A program made the position numbers and the translations under genes. From assembly GCA_000002445.1 (NCBI GenBank), contig CP000071.1, positions 224,001 to 288,000 on the forward strand: DNA of 64,000 nucleotides, written 5' to 3'. Source of the DNA: Trypanosoma brucei (taxonomy: Eukaryota). This document shows, piece after piece, positions 1-64,000 of the stretch; the stretch's first letter is position 1; each line of letters opens with the position of its first letter. Below the pieces are notes generated by a model. The model did no database searches and was not told the origin of the DNA. It saw only the letters and a program-made list of their open reading frames with translations.

Positions 1-3000
1 TGTTGTTGCCACCTGAAAAGGGAAACCAGAGTTTAATACCGTCGGGGGGTAGCATACCTGCAACCTGACGATACAATTGAGCTGACGAAGAAAGTCCAAA
101 ACAACACTCTGCGCCGAATTGTTAGAAGGAATGTATTTACTTTGATACAGAGAGAGACGCAAAAGATACCTTAGTGAAGTCGCAGCGTAGTGACGAATCT
201 CGTTTGAATCACTAAACAGAAATATTTTTTTCCGGTCCAAAATGCACCGACACAACTTAGGCAGCAGCACGATGTTAACATCAGCGGCAAACACGTCCAG
301 CAGCTTCGTGATGACGTGAAGCGCCCGTAATATGCCTCTTTTCACGCCAGTAAATGCCACTTTGATGTTTGCCTCTACGCTATCTGAATCACGTACCCCC
401 GAGGTCACATTCACGGGGGAGCCGGAACCATCATCCAGTGGTGTCAGCATGTCAAAGAAGGGTTCGTACATTGACCAAACATCATGGGTTTTCACCTTAC
501 CGTACAGTGCACCAAGACCTGAAATGAAACTCATGAGCACCGTATGTGACAAGAGGATGTTACTGCATGCTTGTAGCAGCATACTGACATAGCAATCGAG
601 CGCCTCCCGACGAAGTTTAGGGTTTCTTTTGGAGAGACAAATTGCAGCAACGATTACGTCAACAAGGCACGGAAGCTCCTGAGGGTATTCTTTGCTTCTG
701 TTACTCTCGCTTTGCACAAGCTTCATGTAGTCACTAAACCAAAGGTACGCAACCTGTATGTACCTTTTCACAGTCTCTTCAACTCCTGCGGCTTCACCTA
801 AAGACCTCCACATAGACGCCAGTCCCACTGAAAACGAGGTTTGATCACGATTTGCTAGCAGCACGTTCCACACCCAAGTCCCTCGGATTCTCTTCTCGAT
901 GGCAGCCTCGTTGACTAAGACTTTTCCCACCGAATCGTCGGTGTCTGATGCCTGTTCCTGAGCACCTTTCGACGTGTTTTCGTTATCGTCCAAAATTCCC
1001 GCCAACTTAGAAATCAAATTTTTCAGCCCCTGCCGCACCATCCTTCTCTCCGCCAAATCCTTCTCTTCATGACAGGTGGTAAAAGATTGCATGCGCAACC
1101 TTAACCCAGGCACCTCATTGTCAGGTACAGTAAATACTTCGCCATCGCCAGATATATCTGGGGGAGCGCACGTCCTGTCCACCCGAATGGACTTAGGGGG
1201 GAATACCAACCCCATTTTTCCATGGAGGCTAAAGGAAGTGTGGTTTTCCTGTAAAAATCTGTACCTGTTGCTAAAAAAAGAGGTGGTATCTTCACCTTCC
1301 ATGCTTCCCTTCCGCATCAAAATGTTCACTTTGGGTGTCTTCTCTTTTAACGAATATAGCACCACCCGCAGTACAGAGAACGCCGAGCGACGCGTCTCGG
1401 CACAGATGTCCACTGTAAGTTTGAACAGCGCTGCAATGGAAGCTGGTGAAAGAAGCTCGTAATGTAGTTGGATGTGGTTACAAGAGAGGGTACGCAGCAT
1501 CTGAACAGCAAACGTCGGTGCCGTATGTGAGCACTTCATTGCAAGCGGCAACAGCTCATCTGTAAGACACGCTATCGCCATGGGTTCAATAAGGAATGGA
1601 GTGCACACCTCCGCAGCACGGTCCCCATATAAGGAGCATGCGCTGCCTGTTCGGCGAAGCTGGTCTGGTATTTTTAATCCCACTTCAAACATACGCCGAA
1701 TAAAAGATGCGTCACGCTGATATACGTCCAAGGAAAAACCTATTACTGTTTGCATAATTGCACCACTCAGCGCCTTTCGCAACTGCACAAGAGAACCTTT
1801 CTCGCCTACACCGCTCGTTGCGATATCGTCAGATGCGTTGGCAAGCGCGGAGCCTTTACCGTGGTCATCACTCTTACTCTGACTTGTTTCGGCACCAGTA
1901 CACCCCTCAACAAAAAAAACGTCACATATTTTTGCTGCATCACTGCCACGGTCACCCTCCACGCAGGAATCATTGCCCTCACTGCTACAATTCTCAATTT
2001 GTAAAATTTCCTCCCCTGGTCCAGTGTGTCCTTCCTTATCACATATGCTGTTCTTCTCTCCACTACAAACATCGCCTTCCTGTCTGACGAAATCGATTAT
2101 ACCCTCCAAAACATCGAAATGGCGCAGGAGAAACTGGCGACAACCATCGAAACCGAGGTATGGCAGATATGTTCTTAGAATGCAAGAGCAATGTTTTCGG
2201 ACATCTGGGTACGGTGAAAACAGCAATGAGTACGCGATAGAGAGGGTGTCACCAAGGTACTGAGGATAAACAACCATTGGATTCTGTTGGCGGCGGCAGT
2301 GGAGGAGATATTCTGATCGCAGTCGCCAGAAAAGGGCTGGAAAATAGAAGCGGTGCCTCTCCGACTCCACTATAATTGCGGAGAAGTGCTTGAATTCCAC
2401 GTCAAAAGGGATGGTGTAATCATTGGGAATGTTTGTTCGGGTGTCTAATCCCATTTCCCGAAAAAAGAGTGTAAGAACGTAGCAAAGCGTATCGACGTCA
2501 ACCCCTTTTGTGTGGGCAACATCCAGCGGCAATTTACCACGTACCAACAAACTTTGATCGCGTCGCAACACGGTAGCAATAACAGCTTCATCAGCCACGC
2601 CACCTGTCACACGTCTCAACACATAATCCAAAAGTAGACTGTGAATGCTCTCCGTTAACCTTGTAGACTTCTCTAGAAGCGATGGGGAAACCTCGTGTAG
2701 GGGCCATGGAGTTTTAGGGTCCTTATAGTGCCATGGCGTCATGTTGGTCTCACCGTCCGTGGCACACTGAACTCGCAGCTCACAGTTAACGGCCCAAACG
2801 GTATCCAACCAGCACACTGCACCGCAAAGCACGTTATGAGGCGTGACGACGTCGTGGCTGCCCTCAGCGTCAGGAGCCGACGGTGCCTGATGTGATACCA
2901 ACTGACGCACTGAATCGTCTACACACCCACCATTTTCCCTCAGACCTTCGTTCACACTATCGTGATGTGAACTAGGGGACAAATGAGGCGGAAGGAATGC

Positions 3001-5637
3001 ACGCAGGCCCCGTGCAGCCTCCTTACGACTGGGGACCCTAATGTGCTCGATATTTTGAATAATGTCTGTGAGATCCGTCAGAAACAACTGATAAACCTCA
3101 TGGAGGAACGAAACATGTTCCTCCGATGGTTCCTGCCACACAGGTTCCACATCAAAGTAACGATACAGTCCCATGCTAGATTTATCTTGTTTCTGTTCCG
3201 AGTCGCCCTCAGCGGCACATGACTCTTCCTCCATCATGTGATCGCCCCGTACCAGTGACGAATCCACAGCTCGGACACCGACACACCTGGTTTCAGAAAA
3301 GGCGAAGAAAACAGCCGTGTAAAGTAGGGCAGCGCAGCAGCGCCGCTTTCGATTAGTTATCGAGAAAAGTTGCGCTTGAATGCAGTCCAGCAACTCGTAA
3401 CGATAAGGAAAGCAGGCTAATCCAGCACCGCAAACGCAGCTGGACAATAAAGACGAACACCACAATACCTCCTCGTCGTTGCACGTATTCACATCACTGC
3501 GCAGCGGCGGCAACAACCGTGCAATCGCCCACTTCATCACGCGTTCAGGAGAACGCCGAGCAAGGGGTTCCAGCAGGCAACCTACAGAGGGTACCTGCGA
3601 GTTTTTCACCTGCGTTTCCGCCTCTTTAAGAGCCTTCTTCAAGCAATCACTGTAAGCTTCGTCACTGACATTGTGCGAAAGAGAATCTATAATACTCGCC
3701 AGAACATCCGCGTCACTGTCTTCAGTATCTCCCCGCTTAGCACTATGAAACAGTTGTTCCACAACGCTGACAGCAAACTCACACTCAGCAACTTCACTGC
3801 CCAATAATTCGTCTAGATTTAAAACAGTAAAGACGGCAAACAAGAACTCTCGCACACTATTAGAAAGTTGAATACTACTGCAATTTATCCACTGCGGTAC
3901 TAGTGGAAGTATCTCACTGAGGAACGTCCGACAACTCTCCCGGGTCTCACTGCATTCACTAAATGGCAAAAGGGTCTTCGTAAATAACTTGAGGGCCACA
4001 GAGCACTGTAGGGGTGACTCCAAGCATCCACGAATTCCAGCTTCAACGTACTTGAAGGCAGGTGGTTGCATAATTTTGGGTGAAAGAAGCGTAAGTAACC
4101 CCACTGCATTTATAATAGAGTGGTGGCCGTGGTATAACGCGGGGATAATCGCGGGGGCCACAATCTCGACAAGGGAATCGACGGTCTCCCGCTTCCAACG
4201 ATATCCATTAATGACAAAACCATTTCCTGGATCTTTCTCACCCGTTAGCAACCAACTGTGCTTGTGCTTCACCCGCAAGTAAGCGGTTTCCAGGAAGGTG
4301 TTGTAAAACGACAACAAGTGCCCCAGTGCTCTACTATCAACGGCACAAGGTGTAAGAAAAACACTGGTTGAAGACACAAACCGACGCAGCTGATTCCATA
4401 GTGGTGAGGTGGTACAGCAAGGTAGTGCCTCACTAATGCGCCCGACAATCTTCATAAACCGACCTTGACTAACTTCCAGCACTTTGCGGCCGCCAAAAGA
4501 CCATGCAGATGAAACGAGGCGCTCCGGCTTATCATTGCTACTAATGGGCGGTCTCATTACGCTCAATATCATACTGAACAATGTTTCCGCGTATTCATCA
4601 AGGTCCATGATTCCAGCACGCTCTCGACAGATCTTAAACACAATGTCCAGCGAAACCATGAGCCAACTCCCTGACCTCTGCTGCCAATAACGTGCATCCA
4701 CAAGCAAGAAACGCACAATACGCTCCGTCATAGGCAGCGCTCTTCCCGTTACACGATCATAAGTAGCATGAATTGGTAGAAGAATATATAAAAACCACAG
4801 CGCCTGCACCGCCTGCTCACTGTCTTGGGAGAAATAAGGCGCACAAATCTCCCACAACCCATTTAGGGATTCGCCATCAAAGTGCAATGAGGCACACCAG
4901 CACAAATTTGCTAGTATTTCAGCAACTTCTGCTTTTACATGGGTGTAGAACCGAATACGAGACAACCGTGATGATTCGAAAACAAGTGAGTGAACGATAT
5001 CCACGAGCGGTTTCCACGGAAGGGAAAACCCGGGGTGCTTCAATGCATATTTGCGTCGCCCACGAACAACTGAGCAAAAGCAACTCACAACAGAACTCCA
5101 CGCGCTCACGTTACGAATCATGAAGTCCCAGTTCACAATCCACGTATAGAGAAAGATTACGACGTTGCGTTGCACGTCGCGAGGGAGGTTGTACGAGAAA
5201 TTTTTATTTGTAAATGTCCTCCTAAAGTATGTGCAACGACACACTAATTCGTCTTCGGCATCGGACCAGTCACTGTACTCGTTCCGTGGGGAGCTGCATA
5301 TAGGCACGAGTGGAACAGGAGTTCCCGTGCCATCAGCGACGCCAAAGCGTGAGCAGGATGATCCCTTCTCTCCGTGTTCACCCCGCTGCTCGTCCACGTT
5401 GTTAGAATTAATTCTACCCGCAACCTCCTCTGGAGTTCCGAATGCCAGCAGTAATAGCATGCCCTTTTCTATAGCCATGCGGTCCTCACGCTCAATCGCC
5501 TCTCGTAGGCGGGGATGCGTGCAACGGTCTAAATACGGCAACAGCCACTGCTCTTGTAGGTTTCTCTTCTTTGAAACATCTGTCGCGTCACCCACGGCCA
5601 ATGAAACCTCCGCGGAGGATCTCTCATCGCTTTGCAT
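1..5637 (-). CDS. Large hypothetical protein, at least 1879 aa in window. It is partial: the C-terminus and stop codon lie beyond the left edge. The ORF is absent from the supplied track because no stop closes it inside the window.
   Basis: I translated the minus strand by hand in one frame (codon first base at coordinate = 0 mod 3) at 1260-1760, 3000-3060, 4440-4500 and 5580-5640 and found no stops. The first in-frame ATG is at 5635-5637 (N-terminus MQSDERSSAEVSLAVGDAT...). An upstream in-frame stop lies at about 5872-5874. Plus-strand ORFs across this span are all short. Trypanosomatid genes lack introns, so I assume one continuous frame; I did not translate every base. Confidence 0.55.
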   Translation of the reverse strand, partial: MQSDERSSAEVSLAVGDATDVSKKRNLQEQWLLPYLDRCTHPRLREAIEREDRMAIEKGMLLLLAFGTPEEVAGRINSNNVDEQRGEHGEKGSSCSRFGVADGTGTPVPLVPICSSPRNEYSDWSDAEDELVCRCTYFRRTFTNKNFSYNLPRDVQRNVVIFLYTWIVNWDFMIRNVSAWSSVVSCFCSVVRGRRKYALKHPGFSLPWKPLVDIVHSLVFESSRLSRIRFYTHVKAEVAEILANLCWCASLHFDGESLNGLWEICAPYFSQDSEQAVQALWFLYILLPIHATYDRVTGRALPMTERIVRFLLVDARYWQQRSGSWLMVSLDIVFKICRERAGIMDLDEYAETLFSMILSVMRPPISSNDKPERLVSSAWSFGGRKVLEVSQGRFMKIVGRISEALPCCTTSPLWNQLRRFVSSTSVFLTPCAVDSRALGHLLSFYNTFLETAYLRVKHKHSWLLTGEKDPGNGFVINGYRWKRETVDSLVEIVAPAIIPALYHGHHSIINAVGLLTLLSPKIMQPPAFKYVEAGIRGCLESPLQCSVALKLFTKTLLPFSECSETRESCRTFLSEILPLVPQWINCSSIQLSNSVREFLFAVFTVLNLDELLGSEVAECEFAVSVVEQLFHSAKRGDTEDSDADVLASIIDSLSHNVSDEAYSDCLKKALKEAETQVKNSQVPSVGCLLEPLARRSPERVMKWAIARLLPPLRSDVNTCNDEEVLWCSSLLSSCVCGAGLACFPYRYELLDCIQAQLFSITNRKRRCCAALLYTAVFFAFSETRCVGVRAVDSSLVRGDHMMEEESCAAEGDSEQKQDKSSMGLYRYFDVEPVWQEPSEEHVSFLHEVYQLFLTDLTDIIQNIEHIRVPSRKEAARGLRAFLPPHLSPSSHHDSVNEGLRENGGCVDDSVRQLVSHQAPSAPDAEGSHDVVTPHNVLCGAVCWLDTVWAVNCELRVQCATDGETNMTPWHYKDPKTPWPLHEVSPSLLEKSTRLTESIHSLLLDYVLRRVTGGVADEAVIATVLRRDQSLLVRGKLPLDVAHTKGVDVDTLCYVLTLFFREMGLDTRTNIPNDYTIPFDVEFKHFSAIIVESERHRFYFPALFWRLRSEYLLHCRRQQNPMVVYPQYLGDTLSIAYSLLFSPYPDVRKHCSCILRTYLPYLGFDGCRQFLLRHFDVLEGIIDFVRQEGDVCSGEKNSICDKEGHTGPGEEILQIENCSSEGNDSCVEGDRGSDAAKICDVFFVEGCTGAETSQSKSDDHGKGSALANASDDIATSGVGEKGSLVQLRKALSGAIMQTVIGFSLDVYQRDASFIRRMFEVGLKIPDQLRRTGSACSLYGDRAAEVCTPFLIEPMAIACLTDELLPLAMKCSHTAPTFAVQMLRTLSCNHIQLHYELLSPASIAALFKLTVDICAETRRSAFSVLRVVLYSLKEKTPKVNILMRKGSMEGEDTTSFFSNRYRFLQENHTSFSLHGKMGLVFPPKSIRVDRTCAPPDISGDGEVFTVPDNEVPGLRLRMQSFTTCHEEKDLAERRMVRQGLKNLISKLAGILDDNENTSKGAQEQASDTDDSVGKVLVNEAAIEKRIRGTWVWNVLLANRDQTSFSVGLASMWRSLGEAAGVEETVKRYIQVAYLWFSDYMKLVQSESNRSKEYPQELPCLVDVIVAAICLSKRNPKLRREALDCYVSMLLQACSNILLSHTVLMSFISGLGALYGKVKTHDVWSMYEPFFDMLTPLDDGSGSPVNVTSGVRDSDSVEANIKVAFTGVKRGILRALHVITKLLDVFAADVNIVLLPKLCRCILDRKKIFLFSDSNEIRHYAATSLRYLLRLSLYQSKYIPSNNSAQSVVLDFLRQLNCIVRLQVCYPPTVLNSGFPFQVATT

Positions 5638-42111: not shown

Positions 42112-42738
42112 TTAGCAACATCCACTCTTTTGACCTCCGCTGTTGGTTGCTGGGCGGTTATTACCGGTTAGTAATGGCCTTCCACCAGCAGTTGCGCCGC
42201 TGTTGGCTCCCTGAGCAGCCACACGTTTCTTAATATTTTTTGCCATCTCAATGAAAGCCGTCTCCACGTTGGAGGATTCTTTAGCACTTGTCTCCAGGAA
42301 GGGAATCCCGAGGCTGTCAGCAAATTCCTGTGCCATCTGCGTGTCAACGGCCTTCTTCGTAACGAGGTCACATTTATTGCCGACTAGCAGCTTGTTCACA
42401 TTCTCACTGGCAAACTTGTCAATTTCAGAAAGCCAAGTTTTTACGTTGTTGAAACTCTCCATATCGGTAGTATCATACACAATAATAATGCCGTGTGCCC
42501 CGCGGTAGTAACTACTGGTGATGGTACGGAAGCGCTCCTGGCCGGCAGTATCCCAAATTTGTAATTTAATAACTTTACCATCAATATCCAGTGTGCGAAT
42601 TTTAAAGTCCACACCGATGGTGCTGATGTAACTCTCCGTGTAGCTGTCGTCCGCAAAACGGAGAAGGAGACACGACTTTCCCACACCGCTATCGCCAATG
42701 AGCAACAGCTTAAAAAGGTGATCGTACTCTGTAGACAT
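42112..42738 (-). CDS. RAB1: Rab1 (Ypt1) family small GTPase, 208 aa, with a C-terminal CC prenylation motif.
   Basis: Starts at an ATG (cat at 42736-42738). Canonical motifs are GDSGVGKS (P-loop), WDTAGQE, NKCD and ETSAK, plus the Rab1/Ypt1 effector and RabF/RabSF signatures ([25 protein letters not shown]). It ends in GCC. Confidence 0.9.
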
Positions 42739-46275: not shown

Positions 46276-47262
46276 CTAATCTCGGCGTTTGCGGTAATTT
46301 TCACTGCCAGACCTGGAGCCGCTGCTTGCGCTTCGACTGCGCTCCCGACGTCTGCGGTCCCGCTTTTTATAACCGCGACTCCCCGCTGAGGCTTCACTGC
46401 TTCGGCGGCTGTACGATGACCGGCTGCTGACGGGACTGCCACTCCGGCTGCGGTTGCGAGTGCGGCGACGACCCCGACTGTTACTACGATGGCTACGGCT
46501 ACGGCTACGGCTACGGCTACGACTGCGGCTTCTGCTGCGGTTACGGTTGCGGTTGCGACTACGACGTCGTCTGCCACGGCTACCGCTACGGCGGCGGGGG
46601 CGATCGACCCGATCATCATCAAGGCGGCCCCGCTTTCCTTCCCGGCTTTGCTGCACGGAAAGACGGCAATCTTGCATGTACTGATTGTGCATCATTTCAA
46701 TCATTCGCCGAGCATGTGCGGGACTCGGAACATCGACGAAGGCACATTCCCCACGGCGACGGAAGCCAATAATTGGGGCGGCCTCCTCGAGTTTACTGCG
46801 CAGTTCCCTATCCGAGATTGACCGTCCGCTCGGACCTAAACCAACGAAAAGAGCCGTGCGGCCTCCCGCGCTGTTGTTGTAGCCCCCGTAGTCGGCACCT
46901 CTTCCATCAAAAGGAACACCACGCCCACGTTCCCTGTGTCGGCCTCGCTCCCTTTCACGTCCCCGTTCACGATCACGATCGCGTTCCCCTTCGCGATTAC
47001 TCCCACGACTATGTTGAACTACCATTCGCGCTTCACCGATATATTTGCCATCCATTTCAGTGATTAGCCTATCTGCAGCTTCCGGGCCCGCCACATCAAC
47101 AAAAGCGCAACGGCCACGAATGCGAACATCAGACACGGGGGCCACCTGCTCCAAGCGCTCCCAAAGCTGTTCTTTGCTGATTGTAGAGGCGGCTGGGCCG
47201 AGGCCAATGTACAATGATACCACTTCTGGGTTATCACTTCCACTCCCGTCTCTGGAATCCAT
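46276..47262 (-). CDS. TSR1: SR-family splicing/RNA-binding protein with two RRMs, an RE/RD-rich linker and a C-terminal RS domain (TSR1-like), 328 aa.
   Basis: Starts at an ATG (cat at 47260-47262). It has two RRM-like domains (LYIGLGP...RCAFVDV...GEARMVV and LFVGLGP...ECAFVDVPSP...CRLSV), a (RD/RE)n linker, and a long (RS)n tail (RNRNRSRSRSRSRSRSRSRSHRSNSRGRRR). TSR1 is, as I recall it, a two-RRM SR protein in T. brucei, which matches this architecture and size, and it sits next to a Rab1 gene. Confidence 0.7.
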   Translation of the reverse strand: MDSRDGSGSDNPEVVSLYIGLGPAASTISKEQLWERLEQVAPVSDVRIRGRCAFVDVAGPEAADRLITEMDGKYIGEARMVVQHSRGSNREGERDRDRERGRERERGRHRERGRGVPFDGRGADYGGYNNSAGGRTALFVGLGPSGRSISDRELRSKLEEAAPIIGFRRRGECAFVDVPSPAHARRMIEMMHNQYMQDCRLSVQQSREGKRGRLDDDRVDRPRRRSGSRGRRRRSRNRNRNRSRSRSRSRSRSRSRSHRSNSRGRRRTRNRSRSGSPVSSRSSYSRRSSEASAGSRGYKKRDRRRRERSRSASSGSRSGSENYRKRRD

Positions 47263-49336
47263 CTTTTTGAAACGGCACAGAGACTCTCCTTTTCCTCTTC
47301 TTTCTTTCTTCCTTAATTACTTTCCTTCTTTATTGTTATTATTATTACTATTGTTATTCCCGGAGTCCCCTCGAATAATATTTGCTATTCCTCTCGTATA
47401 GTGATAGCAGCGTGATATTTGTATTTTCACCTTCTTGGTTGTGATCGTGCTCCGTTCTCCGTTGCCTCCACGTATGTTCCCCTCACCGTGCTTCACTTGT
47501 GTGTAGCCCCAGTGCCGTGAGTTTGTTTGTTCGGTTGGTTTTTCTTTTCTTTTCTTTTTCGGAGCTTTCTTCTGTACAGTAAATAAAAGTTAAGATATTA
47601 TATTTGCGTAAGAGGAAAATAGAAGAAAGTCGATTCCACACCGGTAATTAGTTAGAGGACCGCACACAAATAAATGATTAAACAAATGGAAGGGGGGGTT
47701 TAATGAGACGTGCAAGACCGGTGGAATTCACAGTGAAATCCCGACAGAAACAAAAGGTGCCATCACACAAGAAACGCGGCAAAACTAAACATTAGCTTTT
47801 TTTTAAAAAAAAAAAAGGCAACCCTGCGTGACTCGATAAATGGCCTCACATAGGATCACCTTTTCTCCCTGTTTCTTCCAACTCTTTATTCTCCAACGTG
47901 CGTGCGCATGCAAACATATTATCATAGAGAACAGCAGGAAATTGAAAATGTTGCAAACATGACTCAAATTTCCGAGTTACAGTTGGAAAATGTCATGGAT
48001 TTAATTATTTCAAATTTGACGTCCTTTTTGTTTAATTTTTTCTGCTTCCCCTTCCTTTGTATTGCCTTTCATTTCTATTTATCTCCTTTCTGTCTCCCTT
48101 TTATTCTTACCATGTCGATGTAAGTTTGAATTTGTCATGAAAAATAAAATAAGACCTACGAAAGAAAATGAAAAGAAGGGGTAAAGGGGGAAAAACTGAT
48201 GAAATGCGCATAATTAAGTTTAAATATTTAACACCCTTGAAAATTGTTATTATCAATATGTCCACAGTTATAAATAATGAGTTACGGGAATCAAATACAA
48301 AGCCACACGACACTCTTCAAGCACCGATATGATAACAAAAATTGAAATAATATTGAAAAAAAATTATAGGAATGGAACCAATAATGAGGGACAAAAAAAG
48401 AAAAAGAAAAAAACAAAACAAAGAGAGATTGAAGCCCTTGGAGGCAGAAGGGGAAAAGAAAAACAATAAATAAACGAATACATGGAAAAAAAAAAAGAAA
48501 CGGGACAACACGAGTAAGGGACGAAAATGAGAAAAATGTCCCTAAAAAAAGGAAACGAAAAACAGTGGAAAAAAAACGTGAAAGAAAAATTACACAACTT
48601 TGCAGCATGAGAAAAGCAAATAATGACAATAGAAAATTTTTTAAAAGAAAAAAGGGGCTCACGCACACAGACAAAAAAAACAGTAATTAAAAAAAAAACA
48701 CTCTACAAATTCAGACGACGAAGGAAAAAAGAAAAAAAGAAAAATTTAATTGAAACGAAATTATTTGGGTAGGAGAAAGTGGCGATGCTGAAACAAAATC
48801 TGTTGCGCATGTGGAGAAAAGAGCACCATCGAAATCTTCAAAAGAAAGCAAAAAAAAAAAAGTAAACATACTTGAAAAAACGTGAAATATTTCCTATCTT
48901 GAACCTGTTCGGATATGATCCCTCTTTTATCTTTTATTTCTTTTTTTTTTTGATCCCTTCGTCCAAATCCCCATCAAGGCACAGCATTCAGCACTTCTCC
49001 TTTTTCTTTAAAAGAAAATAAACAAGCATTAACAAAAAAAAAGAAGATAAGCCAGTTGCTATAATGAATAAAATGACTAGAAACAATTTGAAAAAAAAAA
49101 GGAGAGAAGGAAAAAAAGAAATGACACCATTTATTTTTTTTTCTTTTTTGCTTAGTTTTGCTCTTTGCCTATTTTCTTCCTTCTGGTGCTCTGCACTTCT
49201 CTACCAGTCTCGCACAGAAAAAGTCATACGTTATTTTTTTTTTCCCCACCTCACCAACCTGATTTTCATCATCTAATCTGGTAGTTGGGATTGCCTACTT
49301 GCGTTTCTTCATCGTAACACACACACACACACACGC

Positions 49337-49400
49337 ACACAAGCATATTTATTTATTCATTTACTTATTTATTTATTTATTTATTTATTTATACATTTGT
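49337..49400. repeat. (CA)n followed by (ATTT)n/(TTTA)n tetranucleotide repeats.
   Basis: Seen directly: acacacacacacacacgcacac followed by catttacttatttatttatttatttatttattta. Confidence 0.85.
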
Positions 49401-52201
49401 TTACTCCTTAGACGGGACATGGCCTCGGGAACGTACACACGTATTTATTTATACGCTGCAAGCATAGGCGAAAAAAAAAACAATAATAAGCATAATAATA
49501 ATAATAATAAGTGGAAATGCAGTGGCGACAGCCACCCACCCTCTCTCCTCCCCTCCCTTCCATGGAATACAATAATAAAACATTTTATTTCCCCAACAGG
49601 TTCTCAACGATTCATTATGTTTCGTTTTTCATTTATTTATTCTTATTATTTTTTTTTGAAATTTGGTCGGTTCCCGGTTACAGCAAATGAGGAAATGAAT
49701 GAGTGAAATAACACTTCACCAAAAAAAAACATGCAGACATTTACGAGGTAACGGAGGGACCGCCACTTTTTTTTTTTCTTTCGTAAACAAAAAGAAGAAA
49801 AGAGGCGGAGCCGAATATTTGCATCCGCATTCTCTTCTTCTGTGTACACTCGACCACGTTTATAATAATGCAGTGTACATTTTTACCTTATTTTATATAA
49901 TTATTTCTTCACATTTTCCTCCGAGATTGTCATTTCCGCCACCTGCAAACAACACAAGTCACGGAATTGAAGATATTTATAAACGCTTGAAGGTGGTGAG
50001 GAACAAAATGAATTGATATCAAAAAAACAAAACAAAAATTGGAAACCGTAAGAAGCATATGACAGCGAGGAATTAAAGTGCAACAGAAAATGAAATATAA
50101 TTATAAAAATGATAACAACAATAATAATAATAATAACAGTGATAACACCAAATATATAATAATAATAATAATAATAATGAAAATGAAAATAAGCGAACAA
50201 AACAATGCAATGATGTGAAGAGAACACACTGAAAGAAGAAGGTATGGGTATTGACGAGATGTGATGTGTTAGAGGGGAAAGTGAGAGAGATGAAATATAA
50301 TTTCAAAGAAAAAAGGAATTAAAAAGAATCAAGTAATATACCTTTTTCTTCTTTAATTTCTCTTTACCTCTTATATTGGTGCTTCTTCGATTCCCTTTAT
50401 TATTTTTTTTCTTTCGGTTTATTGTGAGTGTAGAGAAAAAAAAATTGGAGTGGCACCAAATCAGCACCGAAAGATCCAACGGTAGTTGGAGTTAAGAGCA
50501 AAACATAACATAACATTTATAATAATAATAATAGAAAAAAACACTCCATCTGTAAGAAAAATTTCTACACCCCTTACAAAAAACATCATTCAGAACAAAA
50601 AAGAAAAAAAAGCGAAATAATATTTTCAAGTAACTTTTTACTTATCTCTTTCCTGACTCACCATATGGCATATGATTGCCGCAGTGGAAAGAAACAAAAA
50701 AAACAAAAAAAGGCGAGTGGGAAGAGGGAGCACGCATCTAAAAATATATTTTTCTTAATAAAAAAAAAATTCATATCATTAATTGTTGTTTTTATATAGT
50801 TATTTGTATTTACAACAGAAACAACAGCATCAAAATCAGTAAAAGAAATGGAAGCGGCGCATTACTGGTCGGTGGCATTATAATAATATGATGAAGGTGG
50901 GGGGAAAATAAAAACGAGGAACGCCTAATCATTTCTAAAATTACTTTATCATTGGAAAATTAGAGACAATGGAGTAGAAATGAAATGAAATTCAAATGTC
51001 ACACCCATTTTTTTTTACTTATATTACCCACTCATAAAATAAAAAGGGTAAAAATAAAATAAAGTCCCCCGTTTCCGGTAGCGTTAACTCCCTCGACAAC
51101 CCTTGCAATTTAATATAATCAAAGCAGGAAAAAAAAAAAAGAGAAACAAAAATGTGTTTGTAAGTAAATATTTCATCGGCCGCTAGGCTTTTCTCCTTCC
51201 TTCTTTTTTTTTCGTTTCTTCCTTCCATCGTTTCCTTCTCCTTTTCAGGTACGTGGAGCAGTGGTATGAAGGGCCGGAAATAAAAATGTACGGAATAAAT
51301 ATAAAAGGGAGAAAAGAAAGAACAAAACAAAGAGCATGACGAGACCAAACCGTTTTACGCTTACATAAACAAAAACAAAGTCAAAAAAAGAAACATGCCA
51401 TTTAGCTGTTAGCTTGTTTCTGCTCGGCAGTCGTGCTTTTTATATATTTCTTATTTATTTATCTCCCGCTTCACAAGTTTGAGAGAATACAAAATGAAAT
51501 TAGGGCATCAATAAAAACAAAAAAATCATACTTTAAAAAAGACTGCAACAGCAACACATGGGGGAGAGATTAAAACATTTATTTTTATCTAAACATTTGC
51601 TTTAATTATATTTTATGTAAAATTGCACACGCGTGTGTAATATGTCCCCTCTTTTTTCTATTTTTCCCCCTTTCTTTGCCCGCTTCGTCACTCCAAATGA
51701 CTAACGGCATGAAAAGGAAACGAAACAGAAGAAGTACACTTATAATATTTACTTTTTAGTATTTAATTATCTTTTCATTGTTTATTTTTTTTTTTCCTTT
51801 CCCCCTTCCGTATTCTCCATTTAATATTTTGATACATAAGAATAATGACGCCAAAACAGACGAAAAAAAAATCTGACGACGACATCATAACATTCATCAC
51901 TTTATTATCATATCAGTAATAGAAGTAATGGCAGAAGCAGAAGTGATTGTAATTTCTTTCAATACTTAACGAAAAAAAAAAAAGTAACAATGGCACAATC
52001 AGCACACTCGCTTTCCATTGTCCTTTTTTATTTGTTTTTTTTTTTGGTTCCTTGATAGTCGCGTTTATTCGTTCAGTTTTGGGTTTTCATTTTATTCTCC
52101 AAAACAAAAAGAAAAGCACACATGCACCCGTGTGGAATAAAAACAAGAAACAAAAGAATTAATTAATTAATGACTTCAACTTTCATATTTGAGAAACACA
52201 G

Positions 52202-52245
52202 ACACACACACACATACACACAACATATATATATATATATATATA
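52202..52245. repeat. Compound (CA)n(AT)n microsatellite.
   Basis: Seen directly. Confidence 0.9.
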
Positions 52246-55200
52246 GCATGAATGAAATGAGTTGAACAAATGAAAGAGCACATGAGAGGAAACACGAAAC
52301 ACAATAAAAACATATATTTATTTGTTTATTTAAAATGCCTACGCGGGTGTGTGCCCTTTTCTTCTTGGACTTTGTTCCTTCGTTACTTTCAAAAAAAACG
52401 TTAAAAACATCCGCTGATTGTTATTGATTTTTTTTTGCATCTTTCCTTCAACCCACTGGAAAATTGATACGATTATACCCCACCGTCTTTATTTTCGTCC
52501 CTTCAACTCTCTTTAAAATACAATGAATATTGGAGTGAACACGAAAAGAGGAGTAAAGCAGAAGAAAAAAACAAAGATGAAAAATTAGGGAAATACAAGG
52601 ACAAAAGGAACACACAACAAAAATAATAGTAACAATAATTATCGGAATAAAGCAATAAATAAGACAGCAACAACAACAACAATATTATTAAATAATAATA
52701 ATAGTAATAGTCAATAACAATCATCTTAATAATAATAATAAACGAACGAATAAAATGGAAAGTAAAGGGAAGACACAGAGAGAGAGAGAGAAAAGAAGAG
52801 ACAAAAAAGAGGGGAAAAGTGATGGAGCTCCATGGCTAAACCACTTACACTCAAGTAAATATTTACTAAATTATTCATTAATAATAATATATACGTTTAT
52901 ATTTATCTACACTTATCCAACACTTACTTATTTCTTGTCTTCTTTTCCTTATTTGGATTTTACTTTGTTTTATCAGTTGTTTCTCTTTTGTTTTTAAAAA
53001 AAATGGTGTAATCCCAAGCAGTCTCTCATGCTATTTCGTCCTCTTTTTCTAATTTTTCTCTTCTCTTCTCTCTTTCTTATTTTTTTTTCTTACAATTTAT
53101 GCCATACATGATTAAATATATTGAATAGGTAAATACATGGTTATATTGTACACATGTTTTATACGCGCAGTATCATCTTTATATTTGTCTGTTTGTTTTT
53201 TTTTTTAGGTTCTGCTCAAATACAAAGAAAACAGGAGCGACGGGGTATTATATACCTCTTCTTCTTTTTGTAACCCTCTTGGCTTTTTTTTTTTAATGCA
53301 CGTTAATTCCTCAACCCCTCTCTTGTTGCTTGTGTTGTTGTTTTTCATCTTTTACATTTGTGAATGTAATGAAATGGATAACAATAATATTAAACAATAT
53401 TATTCAATCAAATAAGATAAAGCTTATACACACGGAGAGGCAACAGACAAAAAAGAAAAAAAAGAAAAACTGTCATAACCCTCCCTTCCTCCGCTCGAAT
53501 CTTTTGAACAAAACGAACCAAAAGAAAAAACAAAAAACGAATATAAAATGAATCAAAACACGAGCTGAGAAATTTAGAACACACGCGCAAAATGAAAAAC
53601 AGCAGAGCATAAGAAAAACAATAAAGGAGAAAAACGGAGGAAAAATTAATGTTAAGGTGAAGTGGAAGGAAAGGAAAAAAAACATATGAAGCAACAAAAG
53701 GGAGATTGGGGCAAAAAAAAATCAAAAAAACACAAGAAGCATTCAAAAGAAAAGCACATTATAAACTAATCAATTGATTACTGTTAAAAACAGACCAATC
53801 AAATCAGCATGGGCGCACATTTATACATAAATATAACAACATCATAACATTCATATATATGTTTATGTGCATATATTTTCACGTTTATATATATTTGTAT
53901 TTATATTTAAACATTTATTCGTGAGGAATTTTATATACTTCCCAGGTATCGCTCACATTCTCTTTTCGTCCTTCATCTATTTAGTTTGTTTCTTTTGTTT
54001 TATTACTGTTTTATTACTACTATTATTATTGCTTTTATTGTTATCTTGTTTTCATTGGTTTTTGTTGCCTCGGTCTCGTTTCATTTTGTCTTTTTTTTTT
54101 TCATTGCGGTTTCATTTACGTCAATCTATCTTCAACTTCGACGGTATTAACCGAGCGGCTACGAGAATATTCATGAGAATACAAAACATATATATATATA
54201 TATTATTTATTTAATTTAATTTAATTAATACGAAATAGGGTAAGATTAGGTAAATACAAATAAGATGAGTGAGTGTGATGGCCACTTCTGTATTTTTGCC
54301 TTTTTGTTTGTTTGCTTGTTTGTTTGTTTTTTTTTATTTTTTCCGTTTTCTTTTTATTTGCTTTGTTTTCTTTTCAGTTTGGTACCAATAAGGGAGAGAG
54401 AGAAAAAGAAACAACAAAATTAAAACTCCACAAACGAAAACGTTTGGATAGGAAAAGAAAGGACAAAAGGTTTTATAAGGAAAAAAAAACGATTATTTTA
54501 AGTAGAGAACGGCACACAAAAACAAAAGGGTGAAAAAGATAAGAAGAAAGGTAAAATATCATCGACTGGGTCGTTTTTTTTCTTTTCATTATTTATCAAT
54601 CGGGTTGTGTCTGTTTGGTGTTTGAAAATTTTTTAAATTTGTGTTTAATTCATTTGTTTCGTTTCTGCTTTTTTTAAAGAAAGAATCAACAATCAAACAA
54701 AAACGGCGTCGGCAAATAAAAAGAAACGGAAAGATAACAACAAGTATCGTAGACTAATTTTATATATTTATAAATATCCATACAAATATAGTGCTATATT
54801 AATATATATATATTTATTTATTTATTTATTTTGTTTCATTTAAATGTAAAAAGAAAAAAGAAGATTGAAACAAAAACGGAGGAAGGGAGGGAAACATATA
54901 ATCAATCAACAAGGGGTAAATAAGAAAAAAAACAAAAAAGAAATTGGCGGCAATGTTTTCCCTTTGCGTTGCTGTTGTTGTTCTTGGTCGTTTTTTTTTT
55001 GCTTTTACTTTGCTTACTTTAAAGCTGCTTTTTTAAAAAATCAATACAAAGCCCCCCCCCGGCCCCAAACATTTTGCTTCGCCTCATTTTATAATTCCCC
55101 AATTAGTTGCACATTTCATTTATTTGTACAACACCGACAAGAGCGCAAAGGAAGTGAGAGCGGGAGAGGAAAAAAAAGAAAAGGAAAAAGAAAAAGAAAA

Positions 55201-55945
55201 AACAATACGGGGAAACAAAAAGTGACACATCACGCCTCGACAATATTAGTCATGAAATAATATTTGTATTTCTCGTTCATACTCCTCCTTCGATACCTTT
55301 TTTTTTTTTTCCCCCTCCCGCTTCTTTCTCATTTTCATATTCATTCCCATTTCCCTTTCTTCCATCTTCCTTTCTCTATCACTCTCCCCATTTTATTTAT
55401 AATTATATAAATAAATATATACATATATATATATATATATATTTATTCTTTCCAACTTTGTATGCTCTTACAAACACAAATACGCACAAATATATTTATA
55501 TATGTATTTATATTCATATAAATATATAAATGTGAATGTACATACCTGTGTGCAATTGAATGATTGGCGGAATATACATATATTTATTTATATTATTATT
55601 TTTAGTGCATTTGCAGCACGAGGTCAATTGCTCCTCTTCCTCATCGTCATCATCGTCGTTATTCATCTTCATTTTCTTTTCTTTCCTTCTTTATTCCTCC
55701 ACCACTACCTTTCCCATGCCTACCCTCGCCTTCCCCTCTTTATTCTTACCACCATTATAATAATATAACGCAACATAACATAAAATAACATATCATATAA
55801 TTATTATTTATTTAATATCATTAGTCAGTTTATCAATTGGCATTTGTTATTACTTGATACTTGGCATCATTTGGTGTCGTTTGGTGTTGTTGTTGCTGCT
55901 GCTGTTTTTTTTTCATTTTTTACTTTTTGCTTTTTTTGTGTACCA

Positions 55946-55966
55946 ACACACACACACACACACACA
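55946..55966. repeat. (CA)n microsatellite, followed by (TA)n-rich sequence to about 56060.
   Basis: Seen directly. Confidence 0.9.
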
Positions 55967-56031
55967 TATATACATATATATATCTAAAGATATATATATA
56001 TTACTGAAATCAATTAAATACATCTACTTCA

Positions 56032-56063
<32 letters not shown>

Positions 56064-59000
56064 ACGTGTCTGTATGTGTATTTCTACTTCATTTAATTAT
56101 TCTTTTTGTCGTTTGCTTTTTTATTTTATTTTATTTCCCCCTTCTTCCTCTTTAATATTGTGGTCACTACTGCTACTTTGTGTCACTGCTTCACCTCCCA
56201 CCCTCCGCTGCGTAATATATATATATATTTATTTATTTATATTAGTTCATCAATAGTTAAACTTATTTCAATTAATTTAATATTTTATTCCTTTTTCCTT
56301 TTCTTCCTCCTCTCTTATTAATTTATCCACATATTTTTGTACTTTCCTCCCGCATTCTTTATCTTCCTTCTTTTTTTTTCTTTTTTTTTTTTAGTTACCT
56401 CTTCCGATATCTCAATCGTACAAAAACAAAAAATGTTTTCTGCGGAAGAAAAAGAAAAACAGTACAAAATCGCTGGAGAATGGAAGCAATTAACGAATAT
56501 ATAAATATAAATATAAATATGTGAAATATAAATCGAAACGAAGGGATGGAGTGGAGTGGAGTGGAATGAAATGAAGTGGTGAAAAAAAAAAAAAAAGATG
56601 TTCGGACAAAACAAAAAAATGGAGAGAAATTTTTTATTAAAAGGAAAAAAAAGAAAAAAGAAGGTGGAAAAAGGCAACAAGCACTTCACAGGAAAATAAA
56701 ACAAATATGTGCATATGCAAAAAAAAAAACAACATTAAGGGAAGGAAAATAATAATAATAATAATAATAATAACAAGGATGATAAAAGAAAAAAAATGAT
56801 TTGCGCCCTTCTTCAATTACAACTATCCACCGGAAAAAAAACACACACACCACAACATTAATGTAAGTTATGTGTAAATAAATATATTTAAATATATTTA
56901 CTTATTTATTTCATTCGTTGAAATGCACTCGCTTAGAAATAATATACCGACTCCTATTAGTTAGTGTAAGTGAGCAGTCAATGATGTGATGATCGTGTTG
57001 GAATTTTATTAAATTAAAAAAAAAGAAAAAAAGAAATGATGAAACAAAAACCAAAAGAATGATAAACATTTAAATATTTATAATATATTAAGGTGTGTTT
57101 GTGTGTTTGAATGAGTGAATAAGTGAATGAGAAAGTCAACAAATGGAAATATTCCCCTTATATATATATATATATATTCTTTTTACTTTTTATTAAAATT
57201 CCATTCACCATTCCGCCCTCTCCCACACATACACTCAACCACGCACTTACATGGAATGCACCGCGTTATACAAATACATTTTAAAAAAAAAAAATTTATT
57301 TATAAAATATATAAATTGCGTATGCACCATATCAGTGCGTGAAGAAACCATGATGGCAACTCAACACTGTTGGCAGCTTGATCTGAGACAGAGAAACAAA
57401 ACACACAACAAAAAGAAAAAAAAAGGAAACTGAGTTACAGAGTAGAAACAAAATAAAATAAAAAAAGGGGGAAAAGCACAAGAAACACTATTGACAAGCA
57501 GCCCACCTTGTACTTAAATACAAGTGCATGCACTTATTCACTTATATATTTATTAATATTTAATTCTTAACGTATATACATTTTTACATATACCCTTCCG
57601 TTACATTGCGTTAACAATCATATTACAAATCCCTTCAGTACCCAAATTCCCTTGACTTTTATTCTATCTCTTCTTTCTCTTTTTCTTTTTTTTTTAAAAA
57701 AAAGGATTTTTTTTTCTTCATTTTCTTTTGTTTTTCTATTTTATTTTATTGTTCCTTTACAATTTTTGTTCGTGTTTAATTTCCCCTTTCCTCCCAATAC
57801 ATTTATTTAGACACAAACACACAAGCGGAAACAATTTTAAGACATTGCAACACAAATATAATTTACACACATACATTGAGATGGAAATGAAATGGGGACG
57901 TAAATTAATTATTTTATTTTTTTTCAAAAAAGGAAAGTGGAACCGAGTGGAGTTTATTTGAATGAGAGAAAAAAAATTTAAAGAAAAAAAACACACAAAA
58001 AAAACTAACAAAGACGGGAAAAGGAAACAGGGGAAAAAAAAAAGCAGCAGCAGCAGCAAGAGGTGAAGCAGTGAAAATAAAAATACAACAACAAAATCGC
58101 AACAATAACAGGAAAAAAAAACAAACAAGAATAATAAGAAAAAAAAAACATTTACGGATAAGTAATGGAAAACAAAGAAAAAAAAATTATAAAAGAGCAC
58201 AAGAAAAGACAAGAGAGAGAGAGAGAGGGAAAGAAAAAAAAACAGTTAAAAAACAAATAAATAAATAATAATAATAATAACACAAACGCAAAAAACAGAG
58301 ACGAAGTAAAAAAAAGAAAAAGAAAGAAAAAGAGGAAAGCTTAAAGCAGGCATGTTAAAAATATAAGAAAAGAGCGGAATGGAGTGAAATGGAATGGGAA
58401 CAGAAGGAAGAATCGTGCTTTTATTTCTTTTAGTTGTTGTTGTTGTTTTCTTTTCTTTTTTTTTTGCATGCAACTTTTTATTTATTTGTTCGATTGTTTA
58501 ATTTAGTTCATTTCTTCTTTTAAAAAAAAATGATTCGTTTTCCTTCTTTTTCTTTCATTGGTGTTTTATTTTTGCTTTGTTTTTTTTTGTTATTATTTTT
58601 TTTAACTATTTTTTGTTCTCCCATTGCATTTTCTTTAGGTTGTGAAGTGTGACGGTGGTTACGAATGGTAAAGGGAAAAAAAGGGGGAAAAGAAAGAAAG
58701 AAAGAAAAAGAAAAATGAGGGAGAAGATAAGCAAAAAGTATTTTTCTTTTTTTTTTAAAAAAAAACAAAAGTAAAAGTAAAAGAAGGAGCAATATATCAC
58801 AAATTTCTCTGTTGTTCTTTTTTTTTCTTTTTTTTCCCCCTCTTTTCCCCTTTTTTTTTTCTGTTTCTCTTTGCTTTTATTTTTATCTCACCTTTTTTAT
58901 TTACGCCCCACCCCCCATTCCCACGTAAACACACCGTTATGTTTCATTTCAACAATCTTTCAAAAGGGAACTCCAACAGGAAGAATAATAAAGATAATAA

Positions 59001-59742
59001 AGATAATGAAAAAGAGGAAGAGGAGCAAAAGCCCACGCAGCCCTGATAAAACAGCAGGTAAACGGGGGGGGAAAAAAAGGAGCAACATCAAAAAAAAAAA
59101 GAAAGAAATCAAAATAGGAACGTGAAAAATAAATAAATAATAATAATAATAATAAAACAAAAATAGTGATCGACAGTTATGTCAAACACATAGGGATTAG
59201 TAGATAAGACAACTTAAAAGAAAAGGAAAATGGAAACCGCCAGAAAATGAAAAAAAGGAAAAGATATAAAGTCAAATATAAAAAAAAAAGGAAACAAATG
59301 TCAAAGGAAAATGACGTGCGTCAAGCGAAACATTGGCCCACTACCAATAACACCCTCTTGGTTCTACAGGTTATGGGGAAGAAAAACAATAAACGAACAA
59401 GATAAGCAATAAAGGAAAAGAACAAAAAAAAACGAAAAACGAAAAGAACCCAGTCGGGTGGAGGAAACAGGAATAAACAAGAACGTAGGAGAAAACGAAA
59501 ACGAAAGTAAAGAAAATAATAAAGCAGATGCTCCTCCTGTCGCGGCAACGAGGAAACATCCATATCATGTCCCCTTCGGAACACTCTCGGGGGGGAATAC
59601 AAACGGAAACTCTCATATTTATGCGCAATCTCCAAAATGAAAACTTCCACTCTAACTTCTTGTTCGGTCGATTGGTTTTACTCCTCGTCAGGCTCATGTC
59701 CGTGTAACGTAACAGGTATTAAAATTGGAGAAGGAAAAGAGT

Positions 59743-61140
59743 TTAATTGAAGCGACATCCCATGGGCAACGTTGTCGGCATAACAGGTGTGGTAAATAAC
59801 TGTTGTTGCGGGTGTTGGTTGGTAATAAAAACTTGCCTCGTTGAATTGGGTTGAAGCTGCTGCTGAATGTACGCTTGAGGTTGCACCTGCTGGAGCTGAT
59901 TTGTACTTATAGCCATCATACACGACTGCTGTCCACCAGGTTGAACAATTGCATACCCCTGCGGTGGGCGGGAAATGTTGGAGTATTGTTGTGTAACGAA
60001 CTGCTGGGGTTGAGCCAATTGCTGCGGCTGGAGTTGCTGAGGCGGAGCCTTCCAAACGTATTGCATTACCTGTTGCTGCTGTTGTTGCTGGGAAAAGTCA
60101 CGAAGGTCCTGACCTATTGGGCTTTGCACGCTACCCACCTGACTAATTTGCTGGGTTGGTACCATCACCATCTGGCATCCAGTGGAACCATTTACATTTT
60201 GCACAGGTGTTAGGAACTGCACATAACCCGGTGGCGGTGCAGATGTCCCGGAAGCGAGGGACGGAGTGGCCTGAAGGCGCTGAGTTGCCCCTGGTGCCGA
60301 AGTTGCCATCGGCGAAGGAGGAGCCGCAAAGGATTGAACCATTTGATTCAAACCAACTGCCGGCGTAAACGCACCACTCAAGGCGGTTTGTTGCTGCTGT
60401 GGAACTACCGCAGGCCGTTTCTGCATGGAAACCGACAATAAACTCGAGGGGACAATTTGTGTTCCCATAGAGTACACGCCACCAGGCATCTGCACGATGG
60501 ATTGAACCCCTGCTGAGGCCCGAGCAACTTGTGGGTTGGCCAACGGCATTTGCTGCGCCACAGGCATCTGTGCGTGTTTCGATCGCTCCCCAACCCACTC
60601 GTAGGGAGGCGGGCAATCCTCCTGCGGATTATATGACGGAAGAGTTCGCTGGCCCGTACCGGCAGGCGGCTGATCATAACCGGCCACGGGATTTGCAGAG
60701 ACCAGAGCAGGTGGAGAAGTTGCGGAGGGTTCAGTCACACTCATCACACCGGGGGTTGGCGGCTCACTGGAACTCAGCGGCTGAGAGAAGCGCGAATATG
60801 CACTGAGTAGGCTCTTTGAGTCTACCTGATCCAACGTTCGTGACGTTTCAAAGGTCGAGTGACCGGACTCTTGAGAAACAAGGAGAGATTTGGAATCCTT
60901 CGAGCGTAACATCGCCTCAGTGTCCAGGGCCGTGTGAAGATGATTTGCAGCACCCTCTGGTACAACAGCCGTCGATGCAGGAGCCGCTGCCCCGGACCTC
61001 GCTTTGCGCATTACCATTATGTTGTCATCATCATCATCATCATCGTTCATTTGCCGTGTGAGGCTCTCCGTGATGGTGTCAAGATTATCTCGGTCATCGG
61101 AGGTGCAGAGAAACATCGTATCGTAATTGAATTCAGTCAT
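59743..61140 (-). CDS. Gln/Pro-rich hypothetical protein of about 465 aa, with a poly-Asp run and a PPPY (PY) motif.
   Basis: Track ORF 59743..61209 begins with TTG, so I trimmed it to the ATG at 61138-61140 (MTEFNYDTMFLCTSDD...). The C-terminal two thirds are Q/P-rich and low-complexity (QQQQQQ, PQQLQPQQLAQPQQ). It contains DCPPPYEW. It is on the common strand. Confidence 0.45.
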   Translation of the reverse strand: MTEFNYDTMFLCTSDDRDNLDTITESLTRQMNDDDDDDDNIMVMRKARSGAAAPASTAVVPEGAANHLHTALDTEAMLRSKDSKSLLVSQESGHSTFETSRTLDQVDSKSLLSAYSRFSQPLSSSEPPTPGVMSVTEPSATSPPALVSANPVAGYDQPPAGTGQRTLPSYNPQEDCPPPYEWVGERSKHAQMPVAQQMPLANPQVARASAGVQSIVQMPGGVYSMGTQIVPSSLLSVSMQKRPAVVPQQQQTALSGAFTPAVGLNQMVQSFAAPPSPMATSAPGATQRLQATPSLASGTSAPPPGYVQFLTPVQNVNGSTGCQMVMVPTQQISQVGSVQSPIGQDLRDFSQQQQQQQVMQYVWKAPPQQLQPQQLAQPQQFVTQQYSNISRPPQGYAIVQPGGQQSCMMAISTNQLQQVQPQAYIQQQLQPNSTRQVFITNQHPQQQLFTTPVMPTTLPMGCRFN

Positions 61141-61873
61141 TGGTATAGGACTCAATGGACCGCAGTACAAATAACAATAGGATGCTATAGACGGAAAGAA
61201 GGCTTGCAACCTTTGCCCACGCTCGTCTCCAAATCAAATAATCCTTTTCCACAGATGCTTTCTTTTCCTCTTCCTCCTGTTGCTCTCACAGCTTCTTCGA
61301 CAACAATGCAGAAAAAAGACTTCTGCCTTTTCCTAGTCCTTTACTCTGTTTGTCTGTTTGTTTGTTTGTTTTTTTTTAATTTTTTCTTTACAATTTGTTT
61401 TTTGTGTGTGTGGTTTTTCTTGGCTTCCTTCAAAAATGATGATTTTCTGTTCTGTATTTTTTTTAGCTTTTTTTTCTCTTTAAGCAGTACCTTCTTCTCA
61501 ATTCGCTTCCCTTCTTTATCGCTCGTGTATCTGTTGCTTTTTTTTCTTGATAATCTACAAGAATTTAAATGCAAGTTGGAGAATATTTTACAAAAAAAAA
61601 AGGTCGAAATGAGAAGTAGCGGGGATGTTATCAATGCATTTTGTATCTCGAAGCGTAAGAACAGCTGGCAAAACAGACGGAGCTGCCAAATGGGGGAAGT
61701 AAACCTATTCAAGAAATAAACAAACACTACTAAAATTGCGAAACAGTTTGTAAAGATCAGGCATATGGAAGTCGAAAAAAAAAACACTCGGAAACCATGA
61801 AAGTTAAAAAGAGCGAGGGAATGTTTTTCAGTCAGCACCGCAAAACAAAACAAAACAACAATTCCACTCGTCT

Positions 61874-63094: not shown

Positions 63095-64000
63095 CTACAA
63101 AAGACCAACTAATGTGAAAGTAAGGGAAAATAATAATAAGCGTAAATTGTGGTTCTTATTGCTTGCTGCACTTCCCATTGAAGACAAACGACCTTCACCA
63201 AACTCGATCAGAGAAGCAACTCCAGCCACCTCCATCGTTTTATTCAGTTTGACCTCTTTTCTCCGCACGGCAATGCTGGCAATAGTAATCAGCTGTGTGG
63301 ATGTATTCAGATCTTCAAGCATATGAGAGACCACACGTGTGTCACTCTCCAGTCGCTCCGAGAGATTTGGAAAGTTGTCCATAAGTTTCTTCCTCATATC
63401 ATCCAGAGATTTGGGTGTCACCACCCAAGCTGTTTCCCCGCACACCTCAGCAGCCTTCTTTGCTTTCTCATCTGCAGCATTTCCAGCTATCTTCCTTAGC
63501 GTATTTTCCATGAGTGGTAGGTAATGAGCCCTTATACTTTTGAGATTCCTTGCATACCTGCTTACCTTCTTAAACACATTCTGTGCTTTACTTACTGCTT
63601 TCGCAACCTCAGCAACGGCCCGCTTCACCTGATCCATGTGTCCCCCCGGACGCTTTGCATCCGCTTGGCTCCGTTCCTCCACTTTAGAAACCATTGCAGA
63701 ACGGCTCACAGCTTGCTCCGTGAATGCGTCCACTGCACCTTTTAGGCCTCTGTACTGCTCAACCATCAAACACACTGCTTGTGTCTGATTCAGAGTAAGA
63801 TTGTACTTTCTGGTGATAGAGGCCTTTGTTCCCTCGACCAGTTCCTTCACCGTAGACTCACCTTTGAGCGCCACCGACCTCCAAGTAACGACATTGTAGA
63901 GCACAAACTCCAGCTTCCACAGCTCCCCGGAACTTTCCCGGGTGTCATCCTCCAAACCTTCCGAAGCACCCTCAGGTAACGTACTAAACAACTCCAACAG
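63095..64000 (-). CDS. Partial CDS whose N-terminus lies beyond the right edge. The protein is alanine/lysine/glutamate-rich and helical, with a C-terminal hydrophobic tail that fits a GPI-anchor signal or TM segment.
   Basis: The open frame continues past 63997 into the window edge. The C-terminus reads ...SMGSAASNKNHNLRLLLFSLTFTLVGLL, a small-residue omega-site-like stretch followed by a hydrophobic tail. It is on the common strand. Confidence 0.45.
   Translation of the reverse strand: MLELFSTLPEGASEGLEDDTRESSGELWKLEFVLYNVVTWRSVALKGESTVKELVEGTKASITRKYNLTLNQTQAVCLMVEQYRGLKGAVDAFTEQAVSRSAMVSKVEERSQADAKRPGGHMDQVKRAVAEVAKAVSKAQNVFKKVSRYARNLKSIRAHYLPLMENTLRKIAGNAADEKAKKAAEVCGETAWVVTPKSLDDMRKKLMDNFPNLSERLESDTRVVSHMLEDLNTSTQLITIASIAVRRKEVKLNKTMEVAGVASLIEFGEGRLSSMGSAASNKNHNLRLLLFSLTFTLVGLL

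Follow-up and report, generated by a model that had tools for sequence, protein, structure and literature searches.

Background

What does the left edge of a 64-kb stretch of Trypanosoma brucei DNA (the window) encode, given that the mechanical list of its ORFs holds nothing longer than 171 aa over positions 1-5637? The original prediction, made from the letters alone, held that a minus-strand frame of at least 5.6 kb and at least 1879 codons passes uninterrupted through this region and continues past coordinate 1. It further held that this frame is one giant gene, and that its product is a large helical-repeat protein of the HEAT/ARM-like type, whose family it left unassigned. The analysis described here supports the conclusion, held with high confidence, that the frame covers the 5' 85% of a single-exon gene encoding the T. 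brucei proteasome activator PA200/Blm10 (PSME4).

The family has an orthology signature, namely a single-copy gene with the PF11919 domain (former DUF3437) at the C-terminus of its product, and PA200 is found in every eukaryotic supergroup, kinetoplastids included, where it was recorded in L. major (Fort et al. 2015, PMC4453063). PA200 is also listed for the T. cruzi genome (PMC3117861). The gene is thus already known, both because it is annotated and because PA200 in kinetoplastids has been published (Fort et al. 2015).

An open frame that runs off the edge of the window

Translation of the minus strand from 5637 to 1 yields 1,879 codons without a stop and begins MQSDERSSAEVSLAVGDATDVSKKRNLQEQWLLPYLDRCTHPRLREAIE, the same N-terminus that had been quoted with the original prediction. 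That prediction had been translated by hand in part, and the three stretches left out (1800-2990, 3070-4430 and 4510-5570) were checked and contain no stop. In full, the frame is open from 5871 to position 1, a run of 1,957 codons, and 5637 is the first possible ATG, none lying between the upstream in-frame stop and that position. The six-frame check found this frame alone to be open, the other five holding 55-130 stops over the same region and staying open for 63-162 codons at most. Given the regional base composition, 1,879 successive codons would escape a stop with a calculated probability of about 10^-41.7. The giant frame is missing from the ORF list because the list, by its stated rule, omits ORFs that cross a window end, as this one does on the left; the original prediction, which put the omission down to the want of a stop inside the window, fits this rule.

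About 100 nt 5' of the ATG, a pyrimidine-rich tract is followed by an AG at 5737-5736 (-), a candidate trans-splice acceptor.

Beyond the window the frame can be followed in a T. brucei-group contig of 99.56% DNA identity (L001), where it runs for 318 further codons, ending in ...MPLMKMPKYLV and then a TAG. By this comparison, the last 318 codons and the stop of the PA200/Blm10 gene would lie to the left of the window edge, in agreement with an annotated protein of 2,197 aa and with the predicted continuation past coordinate 1. The features within the window are collected in Table 1.

Table 1. Features of the PA200/Blm10 gene within the window, with residue numbers (aa) counted from the ATG.
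Feature	Positions	Strand	Basis or remark
PA200/Blm10 partial CDS, codons 1-1879 of 2,197	1..5637	-	no stop; 100% identity to XP_846917.1
ATG start codon	5635..5637	-	residue 1 of XP_846917.1; orthologue N-termini align here
N-terminal and middle HEAT-like repeats, aa ~195-865, collinear with human PA200 130-797	3043..5055	-	profile 225-896, E 6.5e-43
HEAT_PSME4_mid (PF16507) match, aa 631-863	3049..3747	-	Pfam E 6.2e-12, 45.4 bits, gathering cut-off 25.2
Acidic, Ser/Gly-rich insertion, aa ~1189-1281	1795..2073	-	pLDDT <50, no secondary structure, no alignment consensus
C-terminal-half alpha-solenoid, aa 1000-1879	1..2640	-	too diverged for direct PA200 sequence match

One gene, its database copies and its orthologues

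All residues of the window ORF (1879/1879) match residues 1-1879 of a single protein of T. brucei brucei TREU927, XP_846917.1 (UniProt Q57YF1), which GenBank labels "hypothetical protein, conserved". This protein falls into a 99%-identity cluster together with its counterparts from T. b. gambiense and T. equiperdum, the representative of which (P0001) has 2,207 aa; its extra 10 N-terminal residues arose because a gene caller of the prokaryotic type chose a GTG as the start. Full-length orthologues of 2,195-2,207 aa, alignable end to end at 33-36% identity, are present in T. cruzi, T. rangeli, T. grayi and T. congolense. Another relative, P0017 (4,174 aa), is apparently a fused gene model in which some 2,000 unrelated residues come after the PA200 part.

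A long open frame could in principle arise by chance, be a pseudogene or join two genes, and in favor of such a reading it may be said that GenBank offers only the "hypothetical protein" label and that the gene is broken into RHW70976.1 (1,335 aa) and RHW70786.1 (233 aa) in one T. b. equiperdum assembly. This split probably stems from faulty assembly or annotation, as TREU927, DAL972 and T. equiperdum OVI carry the 2,197-aa model intact. A chance frame or pseudogene is further contradicted by the probability of about 10^-42 and by the conservation of length and frame among five Trypanosoma species whose proteins have diverged to 33-36% identity, and a two-gene fusion by the alignment of human PA200, which spans the protein from close to its N-terminus to its final residues and indicates one gene. 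An origin by chance, decay or fusion is therefore scarcely credible, and the claim of one giant gene stands.

Homologue searches with the full ORF, or with a six-sequence Trypanosoma profile, returned Trypanosoma proteins only, apart from one weak match to a Schistosoma PSME4, probably because so long a query overloads the word prefilter. An exhaustive HMMER scan with aa 1-1200 detected only 20 relatives among 1.84 billion cluster representatives, and the lineage is therefore highly diverged. A single T. brucei-group cluster was present in the exhaustive protein search, which is consistent with, though no proof of, a single-copy PA200 gene in T. brucei.

Assignment to the PA200/Blm10 family

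The assignment, which supplies the family that the original prediction left blank, draws on Pfam, on profile searches of PDB sequences and on searches by fold. Two Pfam models specific to PSME4 match above their curated cut-offs. One of these, HEAT_PSME4_mid, lies within the window (Table 1); the other, PSME4_C (PF11919), matches aa 2109-2196 of the full-length protein (E 4.4e-15, 55.7 bits against a cut-off of 22.5), a region beyond the window edge that is known only from the database copies of the gene and from contig L001. PSME4_C is found in all 16 aligned relatives and PF16507 in 10 of the 16. No HEAT family other than PSME4 scored above its curated Pfam cut-off.

A single sequence was too little to reach a PDB entry: phmmer with the 1,879-aa ORF alone gave no match to PDB sequences, and family profiles were needed. 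The six-sequence Trypanosoma profile matched human PA200/PSME4 only (E 4e-12), with collinear N- and C-terminal segments. A profile of 16 family sequences matched human PA200 chains (8CVS/7NAQ/6REY/6KWX) at E 6.5e-43, over about 670 collinear positions and the extreme C-terminus, and matched no PDB protein other than PA200. The residue correspondence to human PA200 given in Table 1 is the authors' own mapping, made from the conserved FSLPW and IQNIE landmarks.

Between these matching ends, aa ~900-1879 are not alignable to PA200 by sequence. A fragment profile of aa 1000-1879 found no match among PDB sequences, and when the family profile was aligned with the Schistosoma PSME4 by hhalign, only the N-terminal ~330 columns aligned, so that sequence methods cannot place the second half.

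Predicted fold

Because HEAT solenoids cross-match each other, PSME4 matches might reflect a repeat composition shared with a generic HEAT/ARM scaffold of the karyopherin, CAND1 or SF3B1 kind, and structure prediction bears directly on this alternative. The AlphaFold2 model of aa 1-1150, built on a 5-sequence alignment, has a mean pLDDT of 57, with aa ~125-785 at 70-90 and almost all helical. When this model was compared with the PDB by Foldseek, the top nine matches were human PA200 (8CVS, 6REY, 7NAQ, 6KWY, 6KWX) and yeast Blm10 (4V7O, 9D0T, 9D4C, 9GBK). The human PA200 matches had E-values of 5.6e-14 to 2e-12 and TM-scores on the query of 0.50-0.52, and the structural alignment with 6REY covered about 800 columns at 5.2 Å. 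Generic HEAT solenoids (SF3B1, CAND1 and importins) reached E-values of at least 6.7e-6 and TM-scores of at most 0.28.

The AlphaFold model of aa 1000-1879, built on an 11-sequence alignment, is likewise an alpha-solenoid (mean pLDDT 64.7). Here PA200 was again the best Foldseek match, but the comparison is not discriminating, with designed ARM proteins and importins ranked alongside it, and this half is where the generic scaffold reading finds its support. Against that reading stand the two PSME4-specific Pfam models and the lack of any other HEAT family, a profile match to PA200 that is collinear over hundreds of positions plus the C-terminus and shared with no other PDB protein, and, for aa 1-1150, a lead of PA200/Blm10 by many orders of E-value and about twofold in TM-score. 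A generic scaffold is thus very improbable. The placement of the second half as PA200 is supported by its modest structural margin in the model and by its position between two PA200-homologous ends of one ORF.

Both models are almost wholly alpha-helical solenoids, and the original description of a large HEAT/ARM-like helical-repeat protein was apt. Taken at their moderate confidence, they fit the monomeric HEAT-like alpha-solenoid of about 1,800-2,200 aa, with its dome fold, that marks the PA200/Blm10 family. The acidic insertion at aa ~1189-1281 is predicted to be a disordered loop that protrudes from the solenoid.

The putative docking tail and anchor loop

Human PA200 caps the 20S alpha-ring as a monomer, and so does yeast Blm10. 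Contacts between PA200 and the 20S core have been described for the human protein, whose SPCYYA tail binds the alpha5-alpha6 pocket while an internal loop docks at alpha1-alpha2 (PMC6863390). In T. brucei the corresponding docking tail is encoded just outside the window. The protein ends in ...PKYLV, and the proteins of five Trypanosoma species all end P-x-Y-L-V/F (L001:6707-6721, P0001-P0005). The third-from-last Tyr, which aligns with human Tyr1841 of the SPCYYA tail, is invariant in 16/16 relatives, and most family members outside Trypanosoma carry a Y-Y/F-x tail.

The preference of the human HbYX motif has been redefined as Tyr followed by Phe or Tyr (Opoku-Nsiah et al.). With Leu as penultimate residue, the Trypanosoma tail departs both from strict HbYX, which has a penultimate Tyr, and from the Y-F/Y rule. 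Because the third-from-last Tyr is invariant and the relatives keep Y-Y/F-x, the Leu reads in the alignment as a conservative, lineage-specific substitution in a tail that has not been lost.

The internal loop appears reduced. In the profile alignment, as read by the authors, most of human loop 561-576, which belongs to the collinear human span 130-797, is placed in insert states, and the T. brucei protein has a short loop at that point (~aa 634-640, of low pLDDT).

Could the Y-L-V/F tail and the extreme divergence of the protein together reflect a co-evolved, parasite-specific PA200-20S interface? This is doubtful, and it is offered as a speculation. Were it true, the trypanosome alpha5-alpha6 pocket would recognise an aliphatic penultimate residue, which would extend the HbYX and Y-Phi rules, and, the proteasome being a validated drug target, the PA200-20S interface could provide a protein-protein contact open to selective targeting. 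The Y-L-V docking tail, the one mildly unexpected feature of the gene, is a small testable lead and no discovery.

Proposed function

The searchable literature yielded no functional study of T. brucei PA200, and for Trypanosoma and Leishmania only reviews and comparative genomics were found. By analogy, the T. brucei protein most likely works at the 20S proteasome as human PA200 and Blm10 do. The protein, of about 245 kDa, would fold as a dome-shaped solenoid of HEAT-like repeats, and a monomer would cap the alpha-ring of the 20S core without ATP or ubiquitin. Its extreme C-terminal tail would insert in the alpha5-alpha6 pocket and leave the gate partly open. As with human PA200 and yeast Blm10, the result might be modulated degradation of peptides and unstructured proteins, chaperoned assembly of the core particle, or both.

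How these activities are balanced is where a second reading enters, in which the protein is a true PA200/Blm10 homologue but serves mainly as a chaperone of assembly, storage or nuclear import, while PA26 (11S) supplies activation. A PA26 activator is indeed well characterised in T. brucei. Among the best structural matches, several show Blm10 on assembly intermediates (9D0T, Blm10:13S; 9D4C, Blm10:alpha-ring). Leu stands in place of the penultimate Tyr, which is regarded as key to gate opening through HbYX, and whether PA200 aids substrate entry is still disputed (Fort et al. 2015, PMC4453063). A mainly chaperoning role is opposed by the conservation of the third-from-last Tyr and of the terminal carboxylate context (P-x-Y-Phi-x). 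Moreover, the yeast protein combines both roles, and sequence data do not separate assembly from activation. A mainly chaperoning protein is an unlikely alternative, and a role at the 20S like that of human PA200/Blm10 is the preferred reading.

Surroundings of the gene in the window

The window as a whole has the layout of a trypanosomatid minus-strand polycistronic unit, on chromosome 8 according to equiperdum locus tags. It contains 14 ORFs of at least 200 aa, all on the minus strand except two, which lie on the plus strand across longer minus-strand ORFs. Its coding regions, at about 45-50% GC, are set apart by low-complexity spacers with a GC content near 30%. Neither tRNA genes nor Rfam families were detected anywhere in the window, and a tandem-repeat scan gave nothing relevant to the PA200 gene.

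Between 7908 and 47262 (-) lie genes for a radial-spoke-head-like protein, VID27, an IML1/DEPDC5-like protein (1,549 aa), a WD40 protein (1,086 aa), a protein kinase and an RRM protein, ordinary conserved eukaryotic genes all. The same interval holds three ORFs of 224-780 aa with no Pfam match, and a 208-aa ORF at 42112-42738 is also present. Inside the ORF of the RRM protein, an imperfect 24-nt tandem repeat (46491-46597; 4.6 copies, 61% matches) implies a short low-complexity peptide repeat.

The RRM gene (46276-47262) is separated from a 488-aa ORF without a Pfam match (59743-61209) by about 12 kb, ~47300-59700, that has 27-33% GC, AT/TA microsatellites and pyrimidine/purine runs and no credible ORF. 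For an intergenic or UTR region, such a length is unusual. A shorter stretch of similar low-GC, low-complexity type occurs at ~28-34 kb.

At the right edge, a minus-strand frame (63095-64000) is open from 64000 to a stop at 63095, 301 codons, and matches Pfam GARP (E 8e-25). GARP is the glutamic acid/alanine-rich protein of Trypanosoma. The ORF listed here as "300 aa TTG" is probably the 3' part of a GARP-family gene that starts beyond the right edge.

The two edges carry the same lesson. An ORF track that requires a stop inside the window can hide the largest gene of that window, and the GARP-family gene is likewise truncated. The main value of the finding is one of quality control, the gene itself being a conserved and annotated component of the eukaryotic proteasome system.

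Comparison with known systems

Like human PA200 (PSME4; 6REY, 6KWX, 7NAQ, 8CVS), the T. brucei protein is one giant polypeptide of HEAT-like repeats. The two share collinear similarity at human residues 130-797 and again in PSME4_C (human 1758-1843), both modelled halves match human PA200 best in fold, and the equivalent of Tyr1841 is kept. The differences are nonetheless considerable. Identity in the structural alignment is only about 15%, and the T. brucei protein is longer by some 350 residues (2,197 aa, against 1,843 aa in human). It also carries disordered acidic insertions, for example at aa 787-833, 861-929 and 1189-1281. Its tail reads PKYLV where the human one reads PCYYA, and in the authors' reading of the alignment the position aligned to the 561-576 loop is much shorter.

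From yeast Blm10 (4V7O, 9GBK, 9D0T, 9D4C) the distance is greater in kind, as there is no HMM-level match to its PDB sequences and the likeness is structural only, at ~10-11% identity; the yeast tail is YYA, unlike the YLV of T. brucei. Leu is the penultimate residue of the Trypanosoma proteins, whereas Tyr or Phe stands there in most of the family's other members. Set beside the PA200 orthologues of kinetoplastids (L. major, Fort et al. 2015; T. cruzi, PMC3117861), the T. brucei protein shows no other difference of consequence and belongs to the same orthologous group.
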